This document shows positions 7,704-56,094 of a DNA stretch of 64,000 nucleotides, one piece after another. The DNA comes from Rhynchopus sp. YZ270_cl-10. Taxonomy: Eukaryota. The position numbers and the translations under genes are program-made. Numbering within the stretch: position 1 is the stretch's first letter; each line of letters opens with the position of its first letter. Location of the stretch: contig OZ037845.1 of the NCBI GenBank assembly GCA_964035575.1, forward strand, positions 1,364,001 through 1,428,000, written 5' to 3'. The notes beneath the pieces were generated by a model, which did not search any database, was not told the DNA's origin, and saw only the letters and a program-made list of their open reading frames with translations.

Positions 7704-7927
7704 TGGGTACTGGGTACTGGGTACTGGGTACTGGGTACTGGGTACTGGGTACTGGGTACTGGGTACTGGGTACTGGGTACTGGGTACTGGGTACTGGGTA
7801 CTGGGTACTGGGTACTGGGTACTGGGTACTGGGTACTGGGTACTGGGTACTGGGTACTGGGTACTGGGTACTGGGTACTGGGTACTGGGTACTGGGTACT
7901 GGGTACTGGGTACTGGGTACTGGGTAC
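7704..7927. repeat. (TGGGTAC)32 heptamer satellite
   Basis: Perfect tandem repeat. Confidence 0.98.
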
Positions 7928-19400: not shown

Positions 19401-20147
19401 GATACGGAGCTGCTTGCTTTCTGGGATCACGAGTGTTGTAGAGTCGGGCTGGAGGTCCCTTAAGAAAAATGTTACGAACCGATTCCATCCCAACTGAGAG
19501 AAGAAAAGTCTGAACGGACGCGAGTTTTTCGAACACGGGGATGCATCGTATGCAGGTGGACAATGCGGATGTGTCGCAGCTATTAACAAAGGTCAGTCCC
19601 AGTGTTTTCTTCCGGTGTGCGTTTTCGGCGTGTGAAGTAATAGGGGATGACAGGCATGGTAGAATGGGTCCCAACAGGAGAGCTGCGGGTCTGACACGAG
19701 GTGAATGGAGCCCCGAGCTGATCGAGAACAGACAAGGCGACGAAGGTCGACCAGGTGCGGGGCAGCATGTCGGCACTCATGTCAGCGCAATGGGCCGCGT
19801 GTAACGAATGTTTTTGGGTTAGTTAAGTGATCTCTGCGTTATTAGGACGCGTCAGTGTATTTGTTCAGTGAATCGTTGGCCCATCTTTAGTTTAAAGTAG
19901 ACCTCTGCTAATCGGAGGGATTTTGTGGTTCAGCTCTATGAGCAGTCCCTAGGGGGTTTGGGTGCAATCAACGAAAAAACCTTTTTTCCTTTTACTTACC
20001 TATCAGAGTTACTATTTTTATTCCTACAAGCGTAGCTTAAAGGAGAAATAGTTCCTCAGATACGGTCGCCAATCACCCCTCAAACAGGGTAATTGAGCAA
20101 TCAACGAAAAAACCTTTTTTCCTTTTACTTACCTATCAGAGTTACTA
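16495..20147 (+). mobile_element. Decayed split-direct-repeat YR retrotransposon (PAT/Ngaro/VIPER/TATE-type architecture)
   Basis: A1 16495-16586; B1 19964-20014; T5; A2 20020-20111; B2 20097-20147; inserted in a T run with no TSD; frameshifted RT/RNaseH remnants inside. Confidence 0.85.
19035..19705 (+). pseudogene. Frameshifted RT-RNaseH remnant homologous to the intact ORF at 51642-53546
   Basis: QVDNA/VAAINKGQS, VEWVPT../GLTRG, FDVLGV and VVERCNVVNLELK match QVDNAAAVAAINKGHS, WVDT..FTRG, FCALGL and FLRRAERVGAELN. Confidence 0.75.
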
Positions 20148-23367: not shown

Positions 23368-25753
23368 ATGCCTGATAGTGATGTCGATGAATTCAGAGAC
23401 CAGAAAGTGGCAGAACTGGAGGAGGAGATAAAGAAGTTGGAGGAGAGGATCGACAATATCGACAAGAAGTTTTGCGAAGCATACGACCGCGGTACCCATG
23501 GCTTCGAAAAGAACACCTACACTGGCGACATCTACTACACCGGCCAGGAGCAAGAAGTGCAAAGGGCGTTCGCACAACACGACGAGCTCAAGAATAGGCT
23601 CAAGGTATGACGCCAGATTCTTGTTGTTTCTAGTTATGTACATTTATTTTCACACCCTTACAGAGTAAAATGGAGCTGTTGAATGAGGAGAAGAGGCAGC
23701 AGACGTTGGAGATGAAAAGTCGACGTATTGTATGAACACAATCCCCGCTTTTGTTCTTGTCTTGGCACGTTCCTCGTACGATATGCGAAGTTGTGTTTGT
23801 GAGTTGCCCTTTTGATCTCCCGTTCTCGGTTGCATCTCTGTGTAGTTTTAGGCAAAATTGAATGAACATTTCTTCTACTCACAGGTATCCATCGAAGAGG
23901 TCATAGCTCATGAAGACTTCGTAAAAAATCTGTTGACCCCCCGTGACTTTTGCCGGCTCTCATTTTCCAAATTCCAGCACTCAACTGAGGAATGGAAAGA
24001 GGAGTCACTCAAAATCGTGACTGACGCACTTATCTGCCAAAAAGGCAACACTGACAAACAGGACAGGAAGCTGTTTTTCGTTCCATCAGGGATGGGCGGT
24101 GGCAAGTCACGGGTACTGTCGGAACTGCGCACCATAATTGAACCTGAGCTCCGTGACGATGTGGCCCTAATCGAGCTTCGAGTCAACTTCGAAAATGGTA
24201 CATCTATCCTGCCAAGCGAACATTCTTCAAACAATAGATCCGCTGTTGTTGCGAAAGCACTGTTGGACAGGATAATGTACCACTTGATTGGAGGGGGAGG
24301 GGTCGTGCACTTTGAAGACTTCCGCAAGAAGAGGAAATGGGACTTTTGCCTTACTACCCTCTTGGAGGCCATACAAGTGGAGATGCGAGCTAAACTTAAG
24401 AAGAACGCTGTGATAGTGCTTGTGAGTGTTGATGGAGGTCACCATATGGATCAGAAGGGCGCGAGGTACATCGACAAACGTGTTTATGAGGAGAGACAGG
24501 GGTGGTACGATGACAGTGCGCTTCGAGCTATGTTCGGCGAACTTCGAGGCGCGTTGGTGTCGGTTCAGTATGTGATGTGTGCTGTGTCCTCCACAGTGAC
24601 TCTCCCGATATTGCGCACCATTGAAGGCTCACATACCATATACAAGGCTGTGCTACATCCACCAAGACTGACCCAGTTGCCGGAGGAAATCACGAACAAC
24701 ACCGTAGTAGAGCATGGTCCGTACTTTGTGGATCTGTTTGGAGAACATCCTCGTACAATGGAGTTTCTGCTCGAGGTAGAAAAGGAGAGCATATCAGAGA
24801 TTATGGACTACTGTGCTGAGCAGTTGAGGATACGTTACCACGAGTTTGTCGCGACACTGTCCGCGAATGAGTTGAATGACCTCTTGCGTTACTCCCTCTC
24901 TGCCACGTGCACCAAGACATCACCAGTCGGGGAGAAGATTGTAGACGATGTGATGAGCCTTGGTTTGCTGACACTCTCTGATGCAACACTTCGGATTTCC
25001 CCTGTCCTGCTGTATGCACTCTGGAGGGGTTCAGGCGCAGAGTTTCCGATTCTTAAGGATTGGCAGCCCTTCACCAACGACACAGATGCACGAGGGTTCG
25101 AACGGTTCAACGGCTATGTGCAGTGCGTTCGCTCGAAGGTGTTCAGAGGCGAAGTCCCTCTGACGGAGTTTCTCCACGGAGTAAGGTGGTGTTCGACACC
25201 CTCACAAACAGTGACGCCTGTGCCCTTGGAGTTTGTGCAAGCAAAACACCAGCTGCACACAGCCTCTGAATGGAAGGGACGGGTCATCTCTGATGGACTG
25301 TCCAAAAACTCTGCTGCCAACCCAGGAGAGAGCACCTTAGTTGTAGGCAAAAATAAAACCATTTGTCTGCGGGGCCACTGTGTGATGAATGCTGACCAAG
25401 CCTCCGCAGGTGACCTCTTCTTTCCTCTAACCAAGGGGACTGAGACAGTTCATGTAGTCACACAGGCTAAGCACTCCCAAAGTGACGTTGGGGATGTCAC
25501 TCTTTCGAACAGCCAAGCCAACAAGAACGCCAAAATTGCAGCTTCCAAAGGGGATGTCTACCTTCTTGTGACGAAGAAGCGCTTGCAAAATGATGCACTT
25601 ACAGAGCTGTCAAAAGAAGTGAGCTCAGGTGTGTGCGCCGGTGTTGTCGATGCACACAACTTTGCGTCTTACTTCGGTCCTTTTTCCAGCAACTTCCCTC
25701 CAGCCACTAGAAAGCGTAAGAGGGAAGAGGCTCCAGTGCGCAAGGAGGGATGA
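23368..25753 (+). CDS. Crinkler/RHS (CR)-type protein: coiled-coil header + P-loop NTPase + restriction-endonuclease-like domain; predicted exons 23368-23604, 23664-23729, 23885-25753
   Basis: Walker A-like GMGGGKS, Walker B-like VLVSVDG, HPRTME, C-terminal N...A.AGD...QAKH; two phase-0 GTATGA..CAG introns join the upstream ORF in frame. Confidence 0.75.
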
Positions 25754-43886: not shown

Positions 43887-44087
43887 TACCCCCCCCCTAG
43901 GCATACATAGCGTGCGAACGGCTCATTCGCATCATTCGCATCCTGTTCGCATTGGGTATTCGCATCCTGTTCGCATTGGCCAATGCGAACAGGATGCGAA
44001 TGACATACGAATAACATTTATTATGGGGTGGCGACAGGCAAGTTCTCATTTTTTGGTCAATTTCCGCACTACACAGTACACACAATA

Positions 44088-44646
44088 CACAGTATACACA
44101 GTATACACAGTATACACAGTATACACAGTATACACAGTATACACAGTATACACAGTATACACAGTATACACAGTATACACAGTATACACAGTATACACAG
44201 TATACACAGTATACACAGTATACACAGTATACACAGTATACACAGTATACACAGTATACACAGTATACACAGTATACACAGTATACACAGTATACACAGT
44301 ATACACAGTATACACAGTATACACAGTATACACAGTATACACAGTATACACAGTATACACAGTATACACAGTATACACAGTATACACAGTATACACAGTA
44401 TACACAGTATACACAGTATACACAGTATACACAGTATACACAGTATACACAGTATACACAGTATACACAGTATACACAGTATACACAGTATACACAGTAT
44501 ACACAGTATACACAGTATACACAGTATACACAGTATACACAGTATACACAGTATACACAGTATACACAGTATACACAGTACACACAGAATACACAGTATA
44601 CACAGTATACACAGTATACACAGTGTACACAGTATACACAGTATAC
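44088..44646. repeat. (TACACAGTA)n nonamer satellite, ~62 units
   Basis: Tandem repeat. Confidence 0.98.
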
Positions 44647-45048: not shown

Positions 45049-46214
45049 CAGTACAGTACAGTACAGTACAGTACAGTACAGTACAGTACAGTACAGTACA
45101 GTACAGTACAGTACAGTACAGTACAGTACAGTACAGTACAGTACAGTACAGTACAGTACAGTACAGTACAGTACAGTACAGTACAGTACAGTACAGTACA
45201 GTACAGTACAGTACAGTACAGTACAGTACAGTACAGTACAGTACAGTACAGTACAGTACAGTACAGTACAGTACAGTACAGTACAGTACAGTACAGTACA
45301 GTACAGTACAGTACAGTACAGTACAGTACAGTACAGTACAGTACAGTACAGTACAGTACAGTACAGTACAGTACAGTACAGTACAGTACAGTACAGTACA
45401 GTACAGTACAGTACAGTACAGTACAGTACAGTACAGTACAGTACAGTACAGTACAGTACAGTACAGTACAGTACAGTACAGTACAGTACAGTACAGTACA
45501 GTACAGTACAGTACAGTACAGTACAGTACAGTACAGTACAGTACAGTACAGTACAGTACAGTACAGTACAGTACAGTACAGTACAGTACAGTACAGTACA
45601 GTACAGTACAGTACAGTACAGTACAGTACAGTACAGTACAGTACAGTACAGTACAGTACAGTACAGTACAGTACAGTACAGTACAGTACAGTACAGTACA
45701 GTACAGTACAGTACAGTACAGTACAGTACAGTACAGTACAGTACAGTACAGTACAGTACAGTACAGTACAGTACAGTACAGTACAGTACAGTACAGTACA
45801 GTACAGTACAGTACAGTACAGTACAGTACAGTACAGTACAGTACAGTACAGTACAGTACAGTACAGTACAGTACAGTACAGTACAGTACAGTACAGTACA
45901 GTACAGTACAGTACAGTACAGTACAGTACAGTACAGTACAGTACAGTACAGTACAGTACAGTACAGTACAGTACAGTACAGTACAGTACAGTACAGTACA
46001 GTACAGTACAGTACAGTACAGTACAGTACAGTACAGTACAGTACAGTACAGTACAGTACAGTACAGTACAGTACAGTACAGTACAGTACAGTACAGTACA
46101 GTACAGTACAGTACAGTACAGTACAGTACAGTACAGTACAGTACAGTACAGTACAGTACAGTACAGTACAGTACAGTACAGTACAGTACAGTACAGTACA
46201 GTACAGTACAGTAC
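45049..46214. repeat. (CAGTA)n pentamer satellite, ~233 units
   Basis: Perfect tandem repeat. Confidence 0.98.
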
Positions 46215-47661: not shown

Positions 47662-50470
47662 TAGGGGGGGGGTAGGGGGAGCGACTCCCTAGTAAAATTG
47701 TGTCGCTTTAACCTGTTACGGCATTTCTGGCCATTTCCAAGCCACCTCTGGTCGGAAAACCCCCCAGAACTGGGTCAGAAACACCCTGTGACCCGAAAAT
47801 TCATGATTAGGGCGACCCAGAATATGCTAAAATGCGAAAAAATAGTGAAAAAGTGGCTTTTTGACGGTTTTGGCCATGTTGGGTAAAATGGCCATTTTTT
47901 GAGAAAAAAACCAAAAAAACAGCAAAATTTCGACATCATGACGGCTGCTTGGGCACAAAACTACCCCAGGGATGTCCCGTGAGTCCATTCCGACCTGTTT
48001 TGGACACTTTCGGTACTTTTTTTGGCCGTTTTTTGGTGTTTTTGTGGTAAAAAACGTCCTATGATAGTCCTATACTAATCGCAAGACGCCATTTGTCCCA
48101 CAGTCTGGGCCAATATGGGGGCCCACAAATGGGTAAAAACCCCCGAAAAAGCACTCCAGGAACCCAGATAGTTCCAAATATCCACCAGACACCCACCCAA
48201 ACACCGCAGAAACACCACAGAAAGTTGTCTTAAAAAACACACTTTTTTCAAAAAGGTTGTCAGACAGGCTCCATAATGACCTTTTTGAAAAAAGTGTGTT
48301 TTTCAAGACGATTTTCTGTGGTGTTTCTGCGGTGTTTGGGTGGGTGTCTGGTGGATATTTGGAACTATCTGGGTTCCTGGAGTGCTTTTTCGGGGGTTTT
48401 TACCCATTTGTGGGCCCCCATATTGGCCCAGACTGTGGGACAAATGGCGTCTTGCGATTAGTATAGGACTATCATAGGACGTTTTTTACCACAAAAACAC
48501 CAAAAAACGGCCAAAAAAAGTACCGAAAGTGTCCAAAACAGGTCGGAATGGACTCACGGGACATCCCTGGGGTAGTTTTGTGCCCAAGCAGCCGTCATGA
48601 TGTCGAAATTTTGCTGTTTTTTTGGTTTTTTTCTCAAAAAATGGCCATTTTACCCAACATGGCCAAAACCGTCAAAAAGCCACTTTTTCACTATTTTTTC
48701 GCATTTTAGCATATTCTGGGTCGCCCTAATCATGAATTTTCGGGTCACAGGGTGTTTCTGACCCAGTTCTGGGGGGTTTTCCGACCAGAGGTGGCCTGGA
48801 AATGGCCAGAAGTACCGTAACAGGTTAAAGCGACATTGGCTCCCACGTTAAAACGGCGGAGTCGCTGGCCCTAGGGGGGGGGGGAATCGGGGGGATGGAT
48901 ATGGGGAAAGGTAAAGAGTATCATGGTGCTGTGTGTGGGAAAGTTTTTTTTTCTTCCCCACATACATCTAGACATAAGACGATTTTTCACACAAAAAAAA
49001 AAGTAGAGTAAAGTTGACAGTGCAAAACGCCTCTGGGACGCAGAGCACTGACACTCCGTGGGGTTATCGAACCCTCCCCTAGACATACACCCCGATGAGA
49101 GTCGCATTCTCGCATCCTCGCACAATTCTGGTCTGGCGAAAAATTATCGCACAATTATCGCTCACTCTCGCACGACCAAAAATCCTTCTACGTGAGCGAT
49201 AATGATTATCGCATGCGATAATGGTGCAAGAATGGTGTACGATAGTGCGATAATGATTCTCGCATGCGACTCGCATCGAGTGTATGCCTAGAGTGTTCGG
49301 GAGAGGGAACCGGCTGGAGGTATATATGCCAGCTCCCATAATCTGTGGACTTCGCTGGGGGAGGGGGGGACCAATGAAATACAGCACAGAAAAAAAGAAA
49401 AAGGGGTACACACGTCTGGATTATGTTTTGTTGTAAAAAAAAAGAGAACAAAAAAGAACAAAACTAAACATAACATTATACCAACTGATCTGTCTTTACT
49501 ACTCTACTACTATGTCTTTTTTCGTTGACCGCAGCCATTTAGGCTCTTTGCCTATGACGCACATGATAATGGATGAGGGGGAGGATTCAAAAGGAAAAAG
49601 CGTAAAGACAGATCTATCGTTGGTTTTAAATATGTTTAGTTTCCAATCACACTTCGTGTGTGCAAAAACTAAACATAACATTATACCAACTGATCTGTCT
49701 TTACTACTCTACTACTATGTCTTTTTTCGTTGACCGCAGCATGACCCAAAGGGACCGCGCAGCGGAATAGTAGCATAGTACGGAGTTAAACGGGGAAGAA
49801 AAAAGGGGGGAAACGGTAGGAAAAGAAAGAAAAACGGTAAACACAGCACCGAGCAAGCCAGCACTCACAGAAAGAAATCGTGTTGATATCCATTCGCCGT
49901 CTCGAAGACAGTGGATAAGGGGGGGCCGTAAGCGCAAGGAGTGCCAAGCATAGTCAGCACACCCCATACAGGGGGACACATTTCAAACAAAAATAAAAGC
50001 GCATGGTGCACGAAGCAGAGTCAGTACCATCAAACGGGAGAGCAAAAAATATGAAAACGGTGTCAGTGATAAGCAGGGACTACAAAAACCAGCACGGGCG
50101 GACCCACCACCGAAACGACAATCTGGACCCACCACCGAAACGACAATCTTCCGCGAGAGTCGCCTCTCCAAACTACTGGGCAGCGGACGTTCGTGAAGCA
50201 GGGAGGCGTGGTACTAAAACATGTCCTCAACCGCGTATAGCGGGGCTCGTGGCCATCAGAACAACCCGCCCTTGGCAGGAAAATACCATGTACACAACGC
50301 AAGAAAACAGAACGCGCACGCACAATACGAGGACAAGCTCCTCAAAGAAAAACCAGTCGTCCCGCGACAGGCCCACACAGACCACCATTGAACCCTAGGT
50401 GATGAAAAAATAAAACAAACACTAAACACTCCTACGACGCACTGTGAGCGGGAAGGCAAACAATAAAATG

Positions 50471-51625
50471 CATGGGGCACTAAGCATAGTCAGCACGCAC
50501 CAGCGATGAAATGTTGATGAACAAGAAACACCCCTTCGTCGCTCCTCGAGCAGGAAGGTAAAATAAAATGCATGGGGCACCAAGCAGAGTCAGCACGCAC
50601 CAGCGATAAAGTGTTGATGAACATTGACACCCCTTCAGGGGAAAAAGTAAAAAGCACAAGGGGCACCAAGCAGAGTCAGCACGCTCCAAGCGAGAAAATG
50701 ATAACAATAACAAAACCCTTCGTCGCTCCGTGAGCGGGAAGGTAAAATAAAATGCATGGGGCACCAAGCAGAGTCAGCACGCACCAGCGATAAAGTGTTG
50801 ATGAACAATAAATACCCCTTCAGGGGAAAAGGTAAAAAGTACATGGGGCACTAAGCAGAGTCAGTACGCACCAGCGATAAAAGGTTGATGAACAATAAAC
50901 ACCCCTTCGTCGCTCCACGAGCAGGAAGGTAAAATAAAATGCATGGGGCACCAAGCAGAGTCAGCACGCACCAGCGATAAAGTGTTGATGAACAATAAAT
51001 ACCCCTTCAGGGGAAAAGGTAAAAAGTACATGGGGCACTAAGCAGAGTCAGTACGCACCAGCGATAAAATGTTGATGAACAATAAACACCCCTTCGTCGC
51101 TCCACGAGCAGGAAGGCAAAATAAAATACATGGGGCACCAAGCAGAGTCAGCACGCACCAGCGATAAAGTGTTGATGAACAATAAATACCCCTTCAGGGG
51201 AAAAGGTAAAAAGTACATGGGGCACTAAGCAGAGTCAGTACGCACCAGCGATAAAAGGTTGATGAACAATAAACACCCCTTCGTCGCTCCACGAGCAGGA
51301 AGGTAAAATAAAATGCATGGGGCACCAAGCAGAGTCAGCACGCACCAGCGATAAAGTGTAGATGAACATTGACACCCCTTCAGGGGAAAAAGTAAAAAGC
51401 ACAAGGGGCACCAAGCAGAGTCAGCACGCTCCAAGCGAGAAAATGATAACAATAACAAAACCCTTCGTCGCTCCGTGAGCGGGAAGGTAAAATAAAATGC
51501 ATGGGGCACCAAGCAGAGTCAGCACGCACCAGCGATAAAATGTTGATGAACAATAAACATCCCTTCGTCGCCCCATGGGCAAAATATAAAAACTCATGGG
51601 GCACTGAGCAAAGCCAGCACGCGCC
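50471..51625 (-). repeat. Array of 13 units of 86-100 bp (alternating ~100/87 dimer) in the 3' region of the retroelement
   Basis: Unit starts 50471, 50571, 50657, 50755, 50842, 50942, 51029, 51129, 51216, 51316, 51402, 51500, 51595. Confidence 0.92.
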
Positions 51626-51641
51626 ATAACAAACAAAACAA

Positions 51642-53546
51642 TTATTGACAAAACATTGCCTCCACACTCTCGTATACTTTGAGCACAGGGGGGAGTGACA
51701 CCATCGTGGGGGCCACCGTCCCGCGAGTGAACTCGTCAGCACGTTGACTTAAAGTGTCCACCCACGTGGCGGATACACACATGTTTGCTGCCTTTGCAGT
51801 GTCAAAAATCGCACACAGCAGCTCGTTAGCTAGATAATTCTTGCTGTGACCTTTGTTTATAGCTGCCACTGCAGCGGCGTTGTCGACCTGAAGAGACACT
51901 TCATGATTAGGGTGGTTTGCGGCCGCTAACCGAACGGCTAGCCAAGCAGCGTATAGCTCTTTCAGGTATATGTGATGTTTCTCAGGATCTGGAAACACAC
52001 CCTGAACAACAGGTTCGAAAAACTCAGATTCTATTAAAGCAGCCCACTCGCGGTCCGAGGCATCTGACCAAGTCACCACGGTGGGTCTCTCTGGTTGGTC
52101 TACAATCCAGTCATTACAACGCATCACAGACACTATGCCTGTGAATTCTGAGATAACAGATGGGGGGATAAAAAGTTGAACATCCCACTTTTGTGGGTCA
52201 ATAGCAAGTAAAGACGCGGTACGCCGCAGAAAAGAAAGAGAATCACGGTAATAACACAAATTCCGTTTGGTACAATACAAAAACCACACGAAACCTCCCA
52301 ATACTTTGTAGAAATCCCGGGCAGTGCAGTCGTCTTTCAACACCGCACTGAGAACGGGGGATTCCACACACTTCTCAATCCAGTCAGGGGCAGCACGGTA
52401 CCGTCTTGGGGAACTCGCCAAGTCAAACTCCAGGCCCAAAGCGCAAAAGTTCGTCCTAGGCACTCCCTCTCCCTCGTCGTCATTCAGCTCGGCACCGACA
52501 CGTTCAGCGCGTCGGAGGAACGAAGAGTAGCGCCTCTCTGCCTCCTGCAAGGTATTGCCCACGACAAAGAAGTTGTCCACCCAAGGTATCCCTTCATCCT
52601 CTGGCAGCAACACCATAGCCGAGCGGTGCGCGATGCACGGCGCCCAACTCCACCCCATGCACAGCACGTTGAGCTTTGCCCTCACAAAGGGTCCGCGTGC
52701 ACCTGCCAGGTTCACTCCAAAGAAATCGTCCACACCATCTGCCAGCGGAAACTGGTAAAACCAGCTCCGCCCATCAGCTTGCACCACGTACGCACTGTCC
52801 AGAAACCTCTTCACTACCTTATGTATGGAAGGTAGATACATGGGAGGGGGGTCACGCATCAGGCGGTTCAGCTTCCGACCGTCGCAGACCAGCCTCAGTC
52901 CCCGCACCTTCTTCGGCACGGTGAAGGCGGGAAGTATCACCTTCTGCTCGCCAGACCGAGACATCACACCCCACTTCTGCAGCTTCCCCCAGTGGCGCAG
53001 CATATGCCTGGAAGTCCCTCTCTTTACCGGGACTGACGACTCCAGGACTTTTCGGCCCTCCTCGGTGAGGGCTGCCGTGAAGGCTTCGGGGGACCGGATC
53101 ACGTCGAGGACTCCTGTCAGAAGACCTTGAGAGTCCATCGCCGTTAGGGCATCCAGGTCCAACCTAGCACGGGAGATCTCCGCCAGCTCCCCCTCAGCGC
53201 GTTCGGCGGGAGCAGACACAAAGCGGCGATCCAAAACAATCGTTGCCTCCCCGTACAGGAGCACAACATCAGGCCCATCGTCCTCCTCCGTCCTCCTCGG
53301 GAGCGCGGGCGGTGGTGGAGGCGCGTACATCTTCGGCGGCGCTCCGAATGTCGGGAAAGCAGGACGCAATGGTGGTGCACGCGCTCTTCTCCAGCGTCGT
53401 ACCCACACACAGGGCCTCAAGCCACACTGCAGCGGAGGGTGCGTCAGCGAGGGCCCAACTGCTCCTGCGACGCACTGCACGACGGCAACCCGTGCTCCTC
53501 CTCGTCCCCTGCCACCCCGCGCACGAGTCCTACTCCTCCGTGCCAT
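51642..53546 (-). CDS. DIRS-class reverse transcriptase-RNase H, 634 aa, with Arg/Gly-rich N-terminus
   Basis: FTVPKK..LRLVCD, DGRSWFYQ, LCMGWSWAP, WVDN, ALGLEFD; RNaseH SDAS, HIYLKELYA, VDN..AV..INKG.S, WV......ADEFTR. Confidence 0.92.
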   Translation of the reverse strand: MARRSRTRARGGRGRGGARVAVVQCVAGAVGPSLTHPPLQCGLRPCVWVRRWRRARAPPLRPAFPTFGAPPKMYAPPPPPALPRRTEEDDGPDVVLLYGEATIVLDRRFVSAPAERAEGELAEISRARLDLDALTAMDSQGLLTGVLDVIRSPEAFTAALTEEGRKVLESSVPVKRGTSRHMLRHWGKLQKWGVMSRSGEQKVILPAFTVPKKVRGLRLVCDGRKLNRLMRDPPPMYLPSIHKVVKRFLDSAYVVQADGRSWFYQFPLADGVDDFFGVNLAGARGPFVRAKLNVLCMGWSWAPCIAHRSAMVLLPEDEGIPWVDNFFVVGNTLQEAERRYSSFLRRAERVGAELNDDEGEGVPRTNFCALGLEFDLASSPRRYRAAPDWIEKCVESPVLSAVLKDDCTARDFYKVLGGFVWFLYCTKRNLCYYRDSLSFLRRTASLLAIDPQKWDVQLFIPPSVISEFTGIVSVMRCNDWIVDQPERPTVVTWSDASDREWAALIESEFFEPVVQGVFPDPEKHHIYLKELYAAWLAVRLAAANHPNHEVSLQVDNAAAVAAINKGHSKNYLANELLCAIFDTAKAANMCVSATWVDTLSQRADEFTRGTVAPTMVSLPPVLKVYESVEAMFCQ

Positions 53547-55957
53547 ATTTATTCGGTAACGAAGTTAAAAAATTTTTCGTTGACCGCAGCCATTTAGGCT
53601 CTTTGCCTATGACGCACATGATAATGGATGAGGGGGAGGATTCAAAAGGAAAAAGCGTAAAGACAGATCTATCGTTGGTTTTAAATATGTTTAGTTTCCA
53701 ATCACACTTCGTGTGTGCAAAAAAAGAACAAAAAAGGAAAGCTTGAAATATATGAAAATACAGCACTGTGCATAGTCATACAAAAACAACAAAAAAAGGG
53801 GTAGTTTGAAAATGCTTTGTGCTCTGTTTTTTATTAGTGTTGTAGACAACAAAAGGGGGGGAGCTCAAATCTTCAAAAATCCTTGCAAATCGCATCAGCT
53901 ATTTTTAAAAGGGGGGTGAAAAGGAGTGGAAATTCCAAACTAAAACAATGAGGGGGGGGGGTTTAATTTTGAGTCATCGGCAAATTGTTCGTTTGAGAGA
54001 TTGTTACCGTGTTTTAACAAATAGTGGAGCACGCTCTAGGGTGGCTACACTAATACAACCAAGTTTTCAATTAAAAAAAATAGTTTAAAAAAATGGTGGG
54101 TCAGTTGCTTATGACGCAAGTGAAAATAGTGGAGTTAGCAATACGTGTTGCCAACTGTTTTCCATCAATTTTTTTTCAAAAAAAGCTAAAAAAAAAAGTG
54201 TAGGGTGTTTGCGGTATAGCTACAAAATATGGGGGGGAACCAAATCGATTGTTTCTTCCCCCAACTCTCCTTGTCTGTGTATCTGTCGATGCATTGCGGG
54301 ACCGCTCCCTCTTCCATTTAAAAAAGAGCCCAAGGGGTTGAAACACGGTACCATAAAGATCTTAAGGAAGATATTTGTGTTTTTTCAGGATTCCTGGAAA
54401 TCCTGACACTTTGTGTTTTTTTTCTTCAGGATTTTTCAAGATCCTGACAATTTGTGTTTTTTTTTTTTTTTACCAGGGGCAGGGTTTCCGCCAGGATTTG
54501 GGGTTTCAGGAATTGGGGGGGACCATCAAAAAGACCCCCCAAAAAAATTTTTCCTCCCCGCAAAAGCGGTCGTCGCGCGCTTCGCGCGCGCCTCCCTGCA
54601 GGCCACAGAGTGGAGAGGCGAAGGGTGCACCAGGTTTGATAGCAGCCATGTCAAGCTTCACAGCTGTGTTGTCTGGTAGAGGTGGTTCGTTTGGAGGTCG
54701 GGGGTGGAAGTTAACAAGGTAAGGGGTCTTGTGAGAGTGGAGGGTGATGGTGTTTGCTTTTTCTATTGTATGGTGTTACAGTCATTACAGTGCTGCAGTG
54801 GGAACATGTAATAACTACCCGTCGCTTGCACCGAAGCCTCCTTAGAAAAAGGGGCAATGCACGGAAGTATCGATGGAAGTATATCAATATCACATAGCTA
54901 GCAACACAGCGCCGCAGGCGCACGGTACGCTACTTTTACCCTTTTTAAAAAAGATTGCACCACCCTCTTTTCTTCCACTTCTTCTGGCACAGCGAGCCAA
55001 ATGCTCTGCACGGTGGGGTCGCATGACCACGGGGGGTCATCTACAACCTCCAAAACCCCATTTTTCTTGGGGGGGACCATGGTCCCCCCCAAACCCCTGT
55101 AAAAATCCGGATTTTTCTGGGAAAAATATTGGGGGGGTCCATGGTCCCCCCCCGGTCCCCCTTGGCGGAAACCCTGAGGGGGCTTCTCTATGTTGTAGGC
55201 ATACAGAGGTACAGATTTTACAGACCGGGGCCGCAACTGGCTGGGATGTCACGAAACTGACAAAAAAAGTGGTTTTCGACCTTTTTTTTTGGCCTGCTGT
55301 ACAGTATAGTCAGGGTAGTAGCTTGAAAGGTGTACTTTTCAAATGTTGCTGGTTTAGAAAAAATTTTTCCCCGGTTGAAAGCGGTCGTCGCGCGCTTCGC
55401 GCGCGACTCCCTGACAACCACTAAGTGGAGAGGCAAAGGGTAAATTTTACGAGACAACAAAGAAAATGGAATATAATCCTGTGTTTACGGCGCTTGGTCT
55501 TGCACCTTCCACTAACCGTACGAAGTCAATACGTCTTCCAGAAGCAGGGGCCGTTGCAACGGTGGGTCATTTTGAAAAAATGGTCAACTTTTTGCATCTT
55601 TGATCAAGTTGCATTTGCGGCTGCAAAATGCAAGGGGATTCCCGAAGACATTGCAAACTCTATTTTTTGCGGAGCAAAAAATTAATATAAAGTGGCGCCG
55701 CAGGCGAAAAAAAAATTAGGGCATAGTGCAAAACATGCAGCTTTTTACACCACAGAGTCACTTAATGAACCCTTTTTAGGGGTTCGCTTACGTGTGAGGC
55801 TTTCTTCTGTGAGTGGGAAAGTGGTGCGGGGGAGGCGAAAAACTGAATCCCGAATCCCACTTTTTTTTTTATTTTTCCCCAAACCAGTAAACCAGCTCGT
55901 TCTGGTTTTGAAACCAGCAAAAGTACCCAAGCTATTTCCCTGGTATAGTATAGTACC

Positions 55958-56094
55958 GTACTGTACTGTACTGTACTGTACTGTACTGTACTGTACTGTA
56001 CTGTACTGTACTGTACTGTACTGTACTGTACTGTACTGTACTGTACTGTACTGTACTGTACTGTACTGTACTGTACTGTACTGTACTGTACTGT
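55958..56094. repeat. (GTACT)n satellite, ~27 units (reverse complement of CAGTA)
   Basis: Tandem repeat. Confidence 0.97.

Follow-up and report, generated by a model that had tools for sequence, protein, structure and literature searches.

VIPER/TATE elements of kinetoplastids follow a published arrangement of A1-ORF-B1-A2-B2, where ORF stands for open reading frame (PMC6681497, PMC12278014). The window analyzed here is a 64,000-nucleotide stretch of Rhynchopus sp. YZ270_cl-10 (contig OZ037845.1, positions 1,364,001 to 1,428,000; coordinates below count from its first nucleotide). It contains a 4.27-kb element on the minus strand (53733-49460) with the order A1-RT/RNase H-B1-A2-B2, RT being reverse transcriptase. 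As far as the published descriptions go, the element is like VIPER/TATE in its split direct repeats, its RT/RNase H and the absence of a target-site duplication, but unlike them it has neither a gag-like ORF nor a tyrosine recombinase (YR), and yet it retains an intact RT that is under selection. SIRE, the known short form, is described as non-coding, whereas the present element keeps its RT. Because of the split direct repeats, we read the element as a VIPER/TATE-like YR retrotransposon that has lost gag and recombinase, presumably by internal deletion. These repeats are the decisive context for the locus and went unstated in the original prediction for this DNA, which concerned an array of RNA hairpins behind the RT gene.

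TOC1 is said, in the title of Day and Rochaix 1991, to have unusual terminal repeats and an internal array of 76-bp units; going by that title, it is like the present element, a non-autonomous DIRS-order element with an internal tandem array, a likeness that leaves unit structure and position aside. TOC1, from Chlamydomonas reinhardtii, is described as a non-autonomous DIRS retrotransposon (PMC9940879). Ogre/Tat long terminal repeat elements, which belong to another retroelement order, carry tandem repeats that are specific to each lineage, lie between pol and the terminal repeat and are thought to be born during replication (PMC7004042); the passages of that paper on these 3′ untranslated region (UTR) repeats propose no structural function for them. 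According to the available accounts, the epsilon signal of hepatitis B virus (HBV) is like HP1, the first hairpin of the Rhynchopus unit, in its hexaloop C-U-x-U-G-C, its stem with a bulged lower extension and its place on an RNA copied by its own RT. Epsilon is a single 5′ signal that needs a terminal-protein domain, whereas HP1 is repeated, has a weak G.U stem and lies 3′ of the ORF in every copy, and no such domain is predicted. How DIRS-order retrotransposons recognize and prime their own RNA is an open question: replication via a circle has been described, and the DIRS primer is given as unknown (PMC7192593). The present element bears on that question as a compact, recently mobile, one-ORF element with a countable hairpin module, in a lineage that has a laboratory model, Diplonema papillatum.

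Anatomy and relatives of the element

The 161-nt repeat A1 (53573..53733) forms the 5′ end of the element and is 98% identical to A2 (49518..49678), both on the minus strand; it holds a pyrimidine tract followed by AG. The 76-nt repeat B1 (49665..49740) is 100% identical to B2 (49460..49535), again on the minus strand, and repeat comparison and junctions place B2 at the 3′ end, inserted at a T run. One contig of a public sequencing run (X7) joins 49459 to 53720, with a 4-nt overlap in the T run and a side of 26 nt, and represents an empty-site allele. The joint in this one contig keeps both flanking 10-mer copies, and there is thus no target-site duplication. The A1...B1-A2-B2 layout, the RT/RNase H and the missing duplication are those of YR retrotransposons with split direct repeats (VIPER/TATE/Ngaro/PAT type), and the gag-like ORF1 and YR ORF of an autonomous VIPER/TATE element are lacking. 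From A1 to the RT start there are 27 nt, and the sole ORF there has 14 codons (53549..53593, minus strand). This ORF starts near the end of A1, where relatives begin their gag-like ORF1 (ATG within ~40 nt of the repeat end in five of six loci checked), and is possibly a gag stump. A YR profile built from P0015 and fetched loci finds no recombinase in the six frames of the window (best E 3.5). The distance from RT stop to B1 is 1.9 kb, as against ~100 nt or less from the end of the RT match to the start of B1 in the four distant relatives with visible B1/B2 (L004, L005, L007, L010). Searches of the open-access literature, supplements not covered, for recombinase-less or diplonemid YR elements gave no description of an RT-keeping form that lacks gag and recombinase and has intact terminal repeats; supplements, including that of PMC10161547, may bear on this.

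The element's only long ORF (51642..53546, minus strand) is intact and encodes an RT with RNase H of 634 residues, P0001. Its structure model begins after residue 61, has a predicted local distance difference test score (pLDDT) of 88 and best matches the RT folds of cauliflower mosaic virus, HERV-K and murine leukemia virus; the first 52 modeled residues (62-113) have pLDDT < 50 and are predicted to be disordered, and the remainder is RT/RNase H. The catalytic motif is WVDN instead of YxDD (residues 322-325; 52572-52583). All 32 aligned relatives share its D and N, which makes the replacement of the last Asp by Asn a family-wide trait. P0001 itself has no Pfam match, but its homologues do. Among the 30 homologues, those with a name are from D. 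papillatum (~50% identity), one of them fused behind a phage-integrase domain, and the best named match of a neighboring host gene is likewise from D. papillatum. In a quick tree built without reference VIPER/TATE sequences (8 short or redundant proteins and 9 loci were left out), P0001 and P0003 nest among diplonemid-type proteins. The host lineage of the element is likely a diplonemid protist. No RT relatives turned up in the viral contigs or prokaryotic genomes searched. In a second subfamily, ~83% identical, 22 of 26 ORF differences fall at third codon positions and three alter a residue (from 40 of 292 rows); the RT is under purifying selection.

More distant relatives were fetched as 24 metagenome loci with 24-38% identity to the RT. 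Their gene order is ORF1, YR and an overlapping RT ORF, with recombinase matches in 8 of the 24 by tblastn (E up to 1) and at least 7 strong ones by iterated profile. Closer to home, a back-translation scan for a recombinase box in long N-termini finds P0008, P0024, P0027 and P0028 compatible, in the same frame and 113-138 residues upstream of the RT; matches also appear in 33-38 of 100 shuffles, and the motif is found in none of seven control loci. At most this hints that close autonomous relatives may exist. We note that GCGCC occurs near the RT end (-30 to +120 of the match end, L001-L023) in 14 of 20 loci, just before B1, where 4.05 would be expected from random 150-nt windows (maximum 11 in 2000 draws; the loci are related and not independent). 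The Rhynchopus element has TGGCGCG at the corresponding place after the stop (51620-51628), and GCGCC is a candidate for a family-wide cis signal.

Other copies were seen through collapsed contigs of public runs (X1, X4, X5, X6, X7); the best-matching run may be the source sample, and the runs are therefore not all independent. Unique element sequence is 12-25x deeper than single-locus joints in X7 and X1. Since depth is not copy number, what follows from this is that the element is multi-copy. Single contigs from X4 (2099 nt, reaching into A1) and X6 (2079 nt) show the ORF directly before unit 2 of the array in one piece; with the same layout in both, the RT-only state is the form of the family. 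In X7 the terminal repeats (49460-49740, 53573-53733) have several times the depth of the ORF, with an A variant that lacks ~87 nt, and other elements, either short non-coding forms or helpers, therefore likely share these ends.

The array and its two predicted hairpins

The tandem array (51630-50420, minus strand; repeat scan) consists of 13 units, in each of which a U-rich linker connects HP1 to a second hairpin, HP2, and a further linker follows. Unit 1 begins ~12-20 nt past the RT stop (51642), so that the predicted contact of array and stop codon stands, and its HP1 (51601..51620, minus strand, from the pattern scan; loop CUUUGC), directly after the stop, is kept in diverged RT copies. 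Long (~100 nt) and short (~87 nt) unit types alternate and give a 187-nt dimer with 91% matches; the short type lacks the upper stem of HP2. The repeats had been described as one array, which is true of their presence but not of their continuity: the 13 units are followed by a unique spacer of ~390 nt (50040..50420; no Rfam match, folding z ~0) and then by three diverged units, all on the minus strand. Unit 14 has an HP1 with one mismatch (50008..50027, pattern scan), unit 15 has the HP1 that folds most strongly (49941..49960, -5.6 kcal/mol), and unit 16 has an HP1 with a 5-nt loop and flanks past alignment (49846..49864). A 25-nt duplication within the spacer (50100-50149) is missing from contigs of two other runs.

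Units 5, 7 and 9 share one sequence, units 4 and 8 another, and units 2 and 10 a third; units 3 and 11 differ at one position, and the units at the edges are separated from every other unit by 18-34 differences. From these identical interior blocks and diverged edges it follows that the array arose by recent block duplication. It has head-to-tail units, a higher-order repeat, a homogenized interior and diverged edges, as retroelement 3′ minisatellites do, and its sense strand is 38% U and 15% A. Within its own subfamily few letters differ across four runs, and in X1 and X6 a block present twice in the array reaches 1.9-2.6x the depth of unique sequence. The array therein appears stable, with a similar layout across runs. 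Its co-occurrence with RT-only copies, which had been proposed as a check, appears to hold for this subfamily in several runs but not for diverged copies, which keep HP1 without the array. Rfam, also named as a check, yields no covariance model match in the array at E up to 10, and between 49000 and 54500 outside the array there are four weak matches, all far below gathering scores. No ribozyme core was recognized in the array, and the window holds no tRNA. By-eye comparison with the consensus of hammerheads, K-turns and Sm sites led us to drop these readings.

The HP1 pattern has 15 matches in the window, all on the minus strand (49941-51620), and none in 100 shuffles. Adding a 16th copy (49846-49864), with one loop base deleted, confirms the predicted number of about 16. 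The stem variants and the mismatch at 50008 were also described correctly; the outlier at 49846 was not, its stem being GTGCTGG/TCGGTGC and not GTGCTGA/TTGGCAC. The stem has 7 bp and is rich in G.U pairs, and it depends on the sense strand: every one of the 15 listed copies loses 2-4 of its 7 pairs when read on the plus strand. Elsewhere the pattern gives two single matches in prokaryotic genomes and six in viral contigs, none in tandem, and these were treated as chance. The 16 copies reduce to 9 distinct sequences over 43 columns, in which 62 of 63 HP1 cells pair; at one stem position a single unit has G-C and others have A-U, with G.U as the intermediate. Six of the seven distinct stem substitutions keep pairing (P = 0.009 at kappa 1.6, as estimated from the array, 0.017 at 2 and 0.08 at 4). 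Furthermore, units 1-13 show 6 extra states in 20 HP1 columns versus 66 in 78 other columns, although linker alignment noise inflates the latter, and units 14-16 retain 52/60 identities in HP1 versus 31/69 in the flanks. In the loop the third of the six positions is the sole variable one, and C1 and G5 are invariant in the 15 hexaloops. A TGG-N-GCG motif precedes HP1; another TGG, in the 3′ arm of HP1, is not conserved. The former may resemble a primer-binding-site pattern.

Most units also carry HP2. In its upper stem 34 of 35 cells pair, three of five pairs show two-sided changes, no shuffle out of 500 reaches the covariation score, and five different triloops are found. All three upper-stem changes relative to the array consensus are present in HP2 of unit 15 (49888..49916, minus strand). 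For this second hairpin the predicted change from GCTC/GAGC to GCCC/GGGC at ~51570 is there, as is the alternative CCCC-TGAA-GGGG. In neutral simulation at kappa 1.6-4, unit 15 has P = 0.01-0.03 and unit 1 has P = 0.11-0.19. The lower-stem strand that unit 1 lacks here is provided in other copies by a 6-nt insertion near 51580, and a loose end at 49922 (X7, X1) is a variant of unit 15 HP2 that by eye retains the upper stem and a CGAA bulge.

Traces of the units are also met in diverged contexts. One diverged RT-end contig runs on into unit-15-like sequence, and a family that is abundant in X1 aligns with 23 nt at the HP1 of unit 15 but not with the 143 nt towards B. In X7 and X5 the last ~200 nt before B1 are 2-4x deeper than the unique spacer; this 3′-most stretch is common to more elements than the ORF in these two runs, not in X1.

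Explanations for the repeated unit

Our preferred explanation, held tentatively and at slightly less than even confidence, is that the RT/RNase H-only element borrows gag and YR from a helper, and that the two-hairpin unit is a cis-acting RNA module that was later multiplied in tandem. From what is known of the family, host polycistronic or element-driven transcription would give an RNA with terminal repeats, RT made from this RNA would copy it into a circle, and a complete VIPER/TATE-like helper would supply Gag and recombinase. The unit would likely serve as an RNA handle for loading of RT or for packaging by the helper's Gag, with one to four copies in other subfamilies and an expansion to 16 here; the expansion may have been favored, through avidity against the helper, or tolerated. 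The HP1 stem changes, the two-sided HP2 changes and the retention of HP1 in diverged contexts give moderate support to selection on the RNA structure or sequence of the unit. To this extent the proposed selected RNA scaffold holds up. The accompanying statement that this is not a neutral minisatellite is not borne out for the array as such, given its block duplication signature and folding z ~0.

A number of results weigh against the helper-dependent module. HP1 had been called covarying, which is overstated: measured against the commonest pair, two-sided changes are seen at none of its seven pairs, and its covariation score is reached by 390 of 500 shuffles. The majority HP1 is predicted to fold with -2.6 kcal/mol, and in context 10 of the 16 copies have a predicted pair probability of at most 0.10. 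On the sense strand the four main unit types give folding z of -0.5, -0.2, 0.0 and -1.8, and long units fold better antisense (z -2.1 to -2.4). Pair-keeping is less telling at kappa 8 (P = 0.20), 11 of the 14 possible transitions leave HP1 paired anyway, and the contrast between HP1 and its flanks is partly circular, the copies having been found through HP1. The two-sided HP2 changes come from two units only, hinge on aligning a very diverged unit and are Watson-Crick, and unit 13 breaks the stem; such Watson-Crick changes could come from DNA-level palindrome correction. Two diverged RT-end contigs (X7, X1) keep the first HP1 and then depart from the array, in a comparison where arrays below 80% identity would escape detection. 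The X1 joint at unit 15 has a side of < 30 nt and is flagged as unreliable, and X1 shows no 3′-end depth excess (ratio 1.0). A tandem array after the RT is found in none of the 24 distant loci, several of them too short to tell, and CUNUGC-type hairpins occur three times in 184 kb of these loci, never after the RT; the module is therefore not needed family-wide. Finally, neither a helper element nor a transcript was seen.

A rival explanation is a neutral minisatellite, which slippage on the template or unequal exchange would have produced in a hypervariable 3′ region, with hairpins as a by-product of a GU-rich strand and palindrome correction; we consider this unlikely overall, though a serious contender. 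Stems of at least 7 bp with G.U appear in 49% and 26% of shuffled units on the sense strand and in 6-8% on the other, and since composition alone yields them, both the existence of the stem and its strand bias are expected. Besides this 25-49% chance of such a stem, z ~0 and HP1 without strict covariation, the neutral account is favored by the identical blocks with diverged edge units, by an array unseen in diverged copies and distant relatives, and by tandem repeats being common in Ogre/Tat 3′ UTRs, as reported in PMC7004042. It accounts poorly for the low substitution density of HP1, the pair-keeping changes, the two-sided HP2 changes, the retention of HP1 after its flanks were lost, and an array architecture that is similar across runs. 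If the array were neutral, the finding would amount to one more retroelement 3′ minisatellite. A rather improbable account makes the units host-facing 3′ UTR signals, which would bind host RNA-binding proteins or show and hide pyrimidine-tract/AG sites and in this way regulate how the full-length RNA is trans-spliced or polyadenylated, or how stable it is. According to PMC10161547, Diplonema trans-splices its mRNAs and has its genes in unidirectional clusters; the eight annotated or long host ORFs tested are all on the plus strand, and each of the five short units has at its end a pyrimidine tract with AG inside HP2. Only 5 of 13 units pass the tract/AG scan, however, and cleavage within the array would destroy the replication template.

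The hexaloop invites comparison with HBV, where the epsilon loop CUGUGC folds as a C1-G5 pseudo-triloop (PMC1636360), and the invariant HP1 loop bases are predicted to permit the same pair. HP1 could thus be an epsilon-like priming template at which the RT binds and begins DNA synthesis, the array offering many start sites. The unknown DIRS primer (PMC7192593) leaves room for such a signal, and Tyr98 of P0001, in the region predicted to be disordered, is kept in all 11 close homologues that cover the site. Yet in the alignment 13 of 14 distant loci lack that residue, and Tyr98 as a protein-priming tyrosine was rejected as not family-wide. Pseudo-triloops are moreover common according to PMC1636360, CUGUGC itself occurs in none of the 16 loops, epsilon is 5′-proximal and single where HP1 is 3′ and repeated, and no folded terminal-protein domain is seen (P0001 residues 62-113, pLDDT < 50); we regard this account as highly improbable. 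In a bolder version, a satellite-like RT-only element would outcompete a gag- and recombinase-bearing helper through 16 epsilon-like pseudo-triloop hairpins acting as a multivalent packaging or priming platform. This is quite improbable, but if true it would reveal the RNA signal, long unknown, with which tyrosine-recombinase retrotransposons set off reverse transcription. Scarcely credible is an array that is cut into small RNAs or templates repeated cDNA, as in some bacterial RT systems: all that favors it is the regular repeat structure beside the RT gene, no evidence for either product was obtained, the RT is framed by terminal repeats as in a typical retrotransposon, and the lack of Rfam matches and of a recognizable ribozyme core speaks against such processing.

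Genomic surroundings

Abundant genomic repeats, with very high summed contig depth in X7 and X4, lie on both sides of the insertion (48987-49173 and 54036-54222). The window also holds long perfect microsatellites, namely TACACAGTA x64 (44070-44646), CAGTA x233 (45049-46214), TGGGTAC x32 (7704-7927) and GTACT x28 (55953-56094), together with many ATCATGTG-based minisatellites, from which it follows that this genome makes tandem repeats readily. Two plus-strand ORFs, 34-1644 (536 aa) and 23858-25753 (631 aa), have no Pfam match. Elsewhere in the window the element is matched only by a 44-nt segment at 19553-19595, which is 82% identical to a part outside the array. Upstream of the element, an 84-nt repeat (81%) at 54543-54626 and 55358-55441 holds the palindrome CGCGCGCTTCGCGCGCG.

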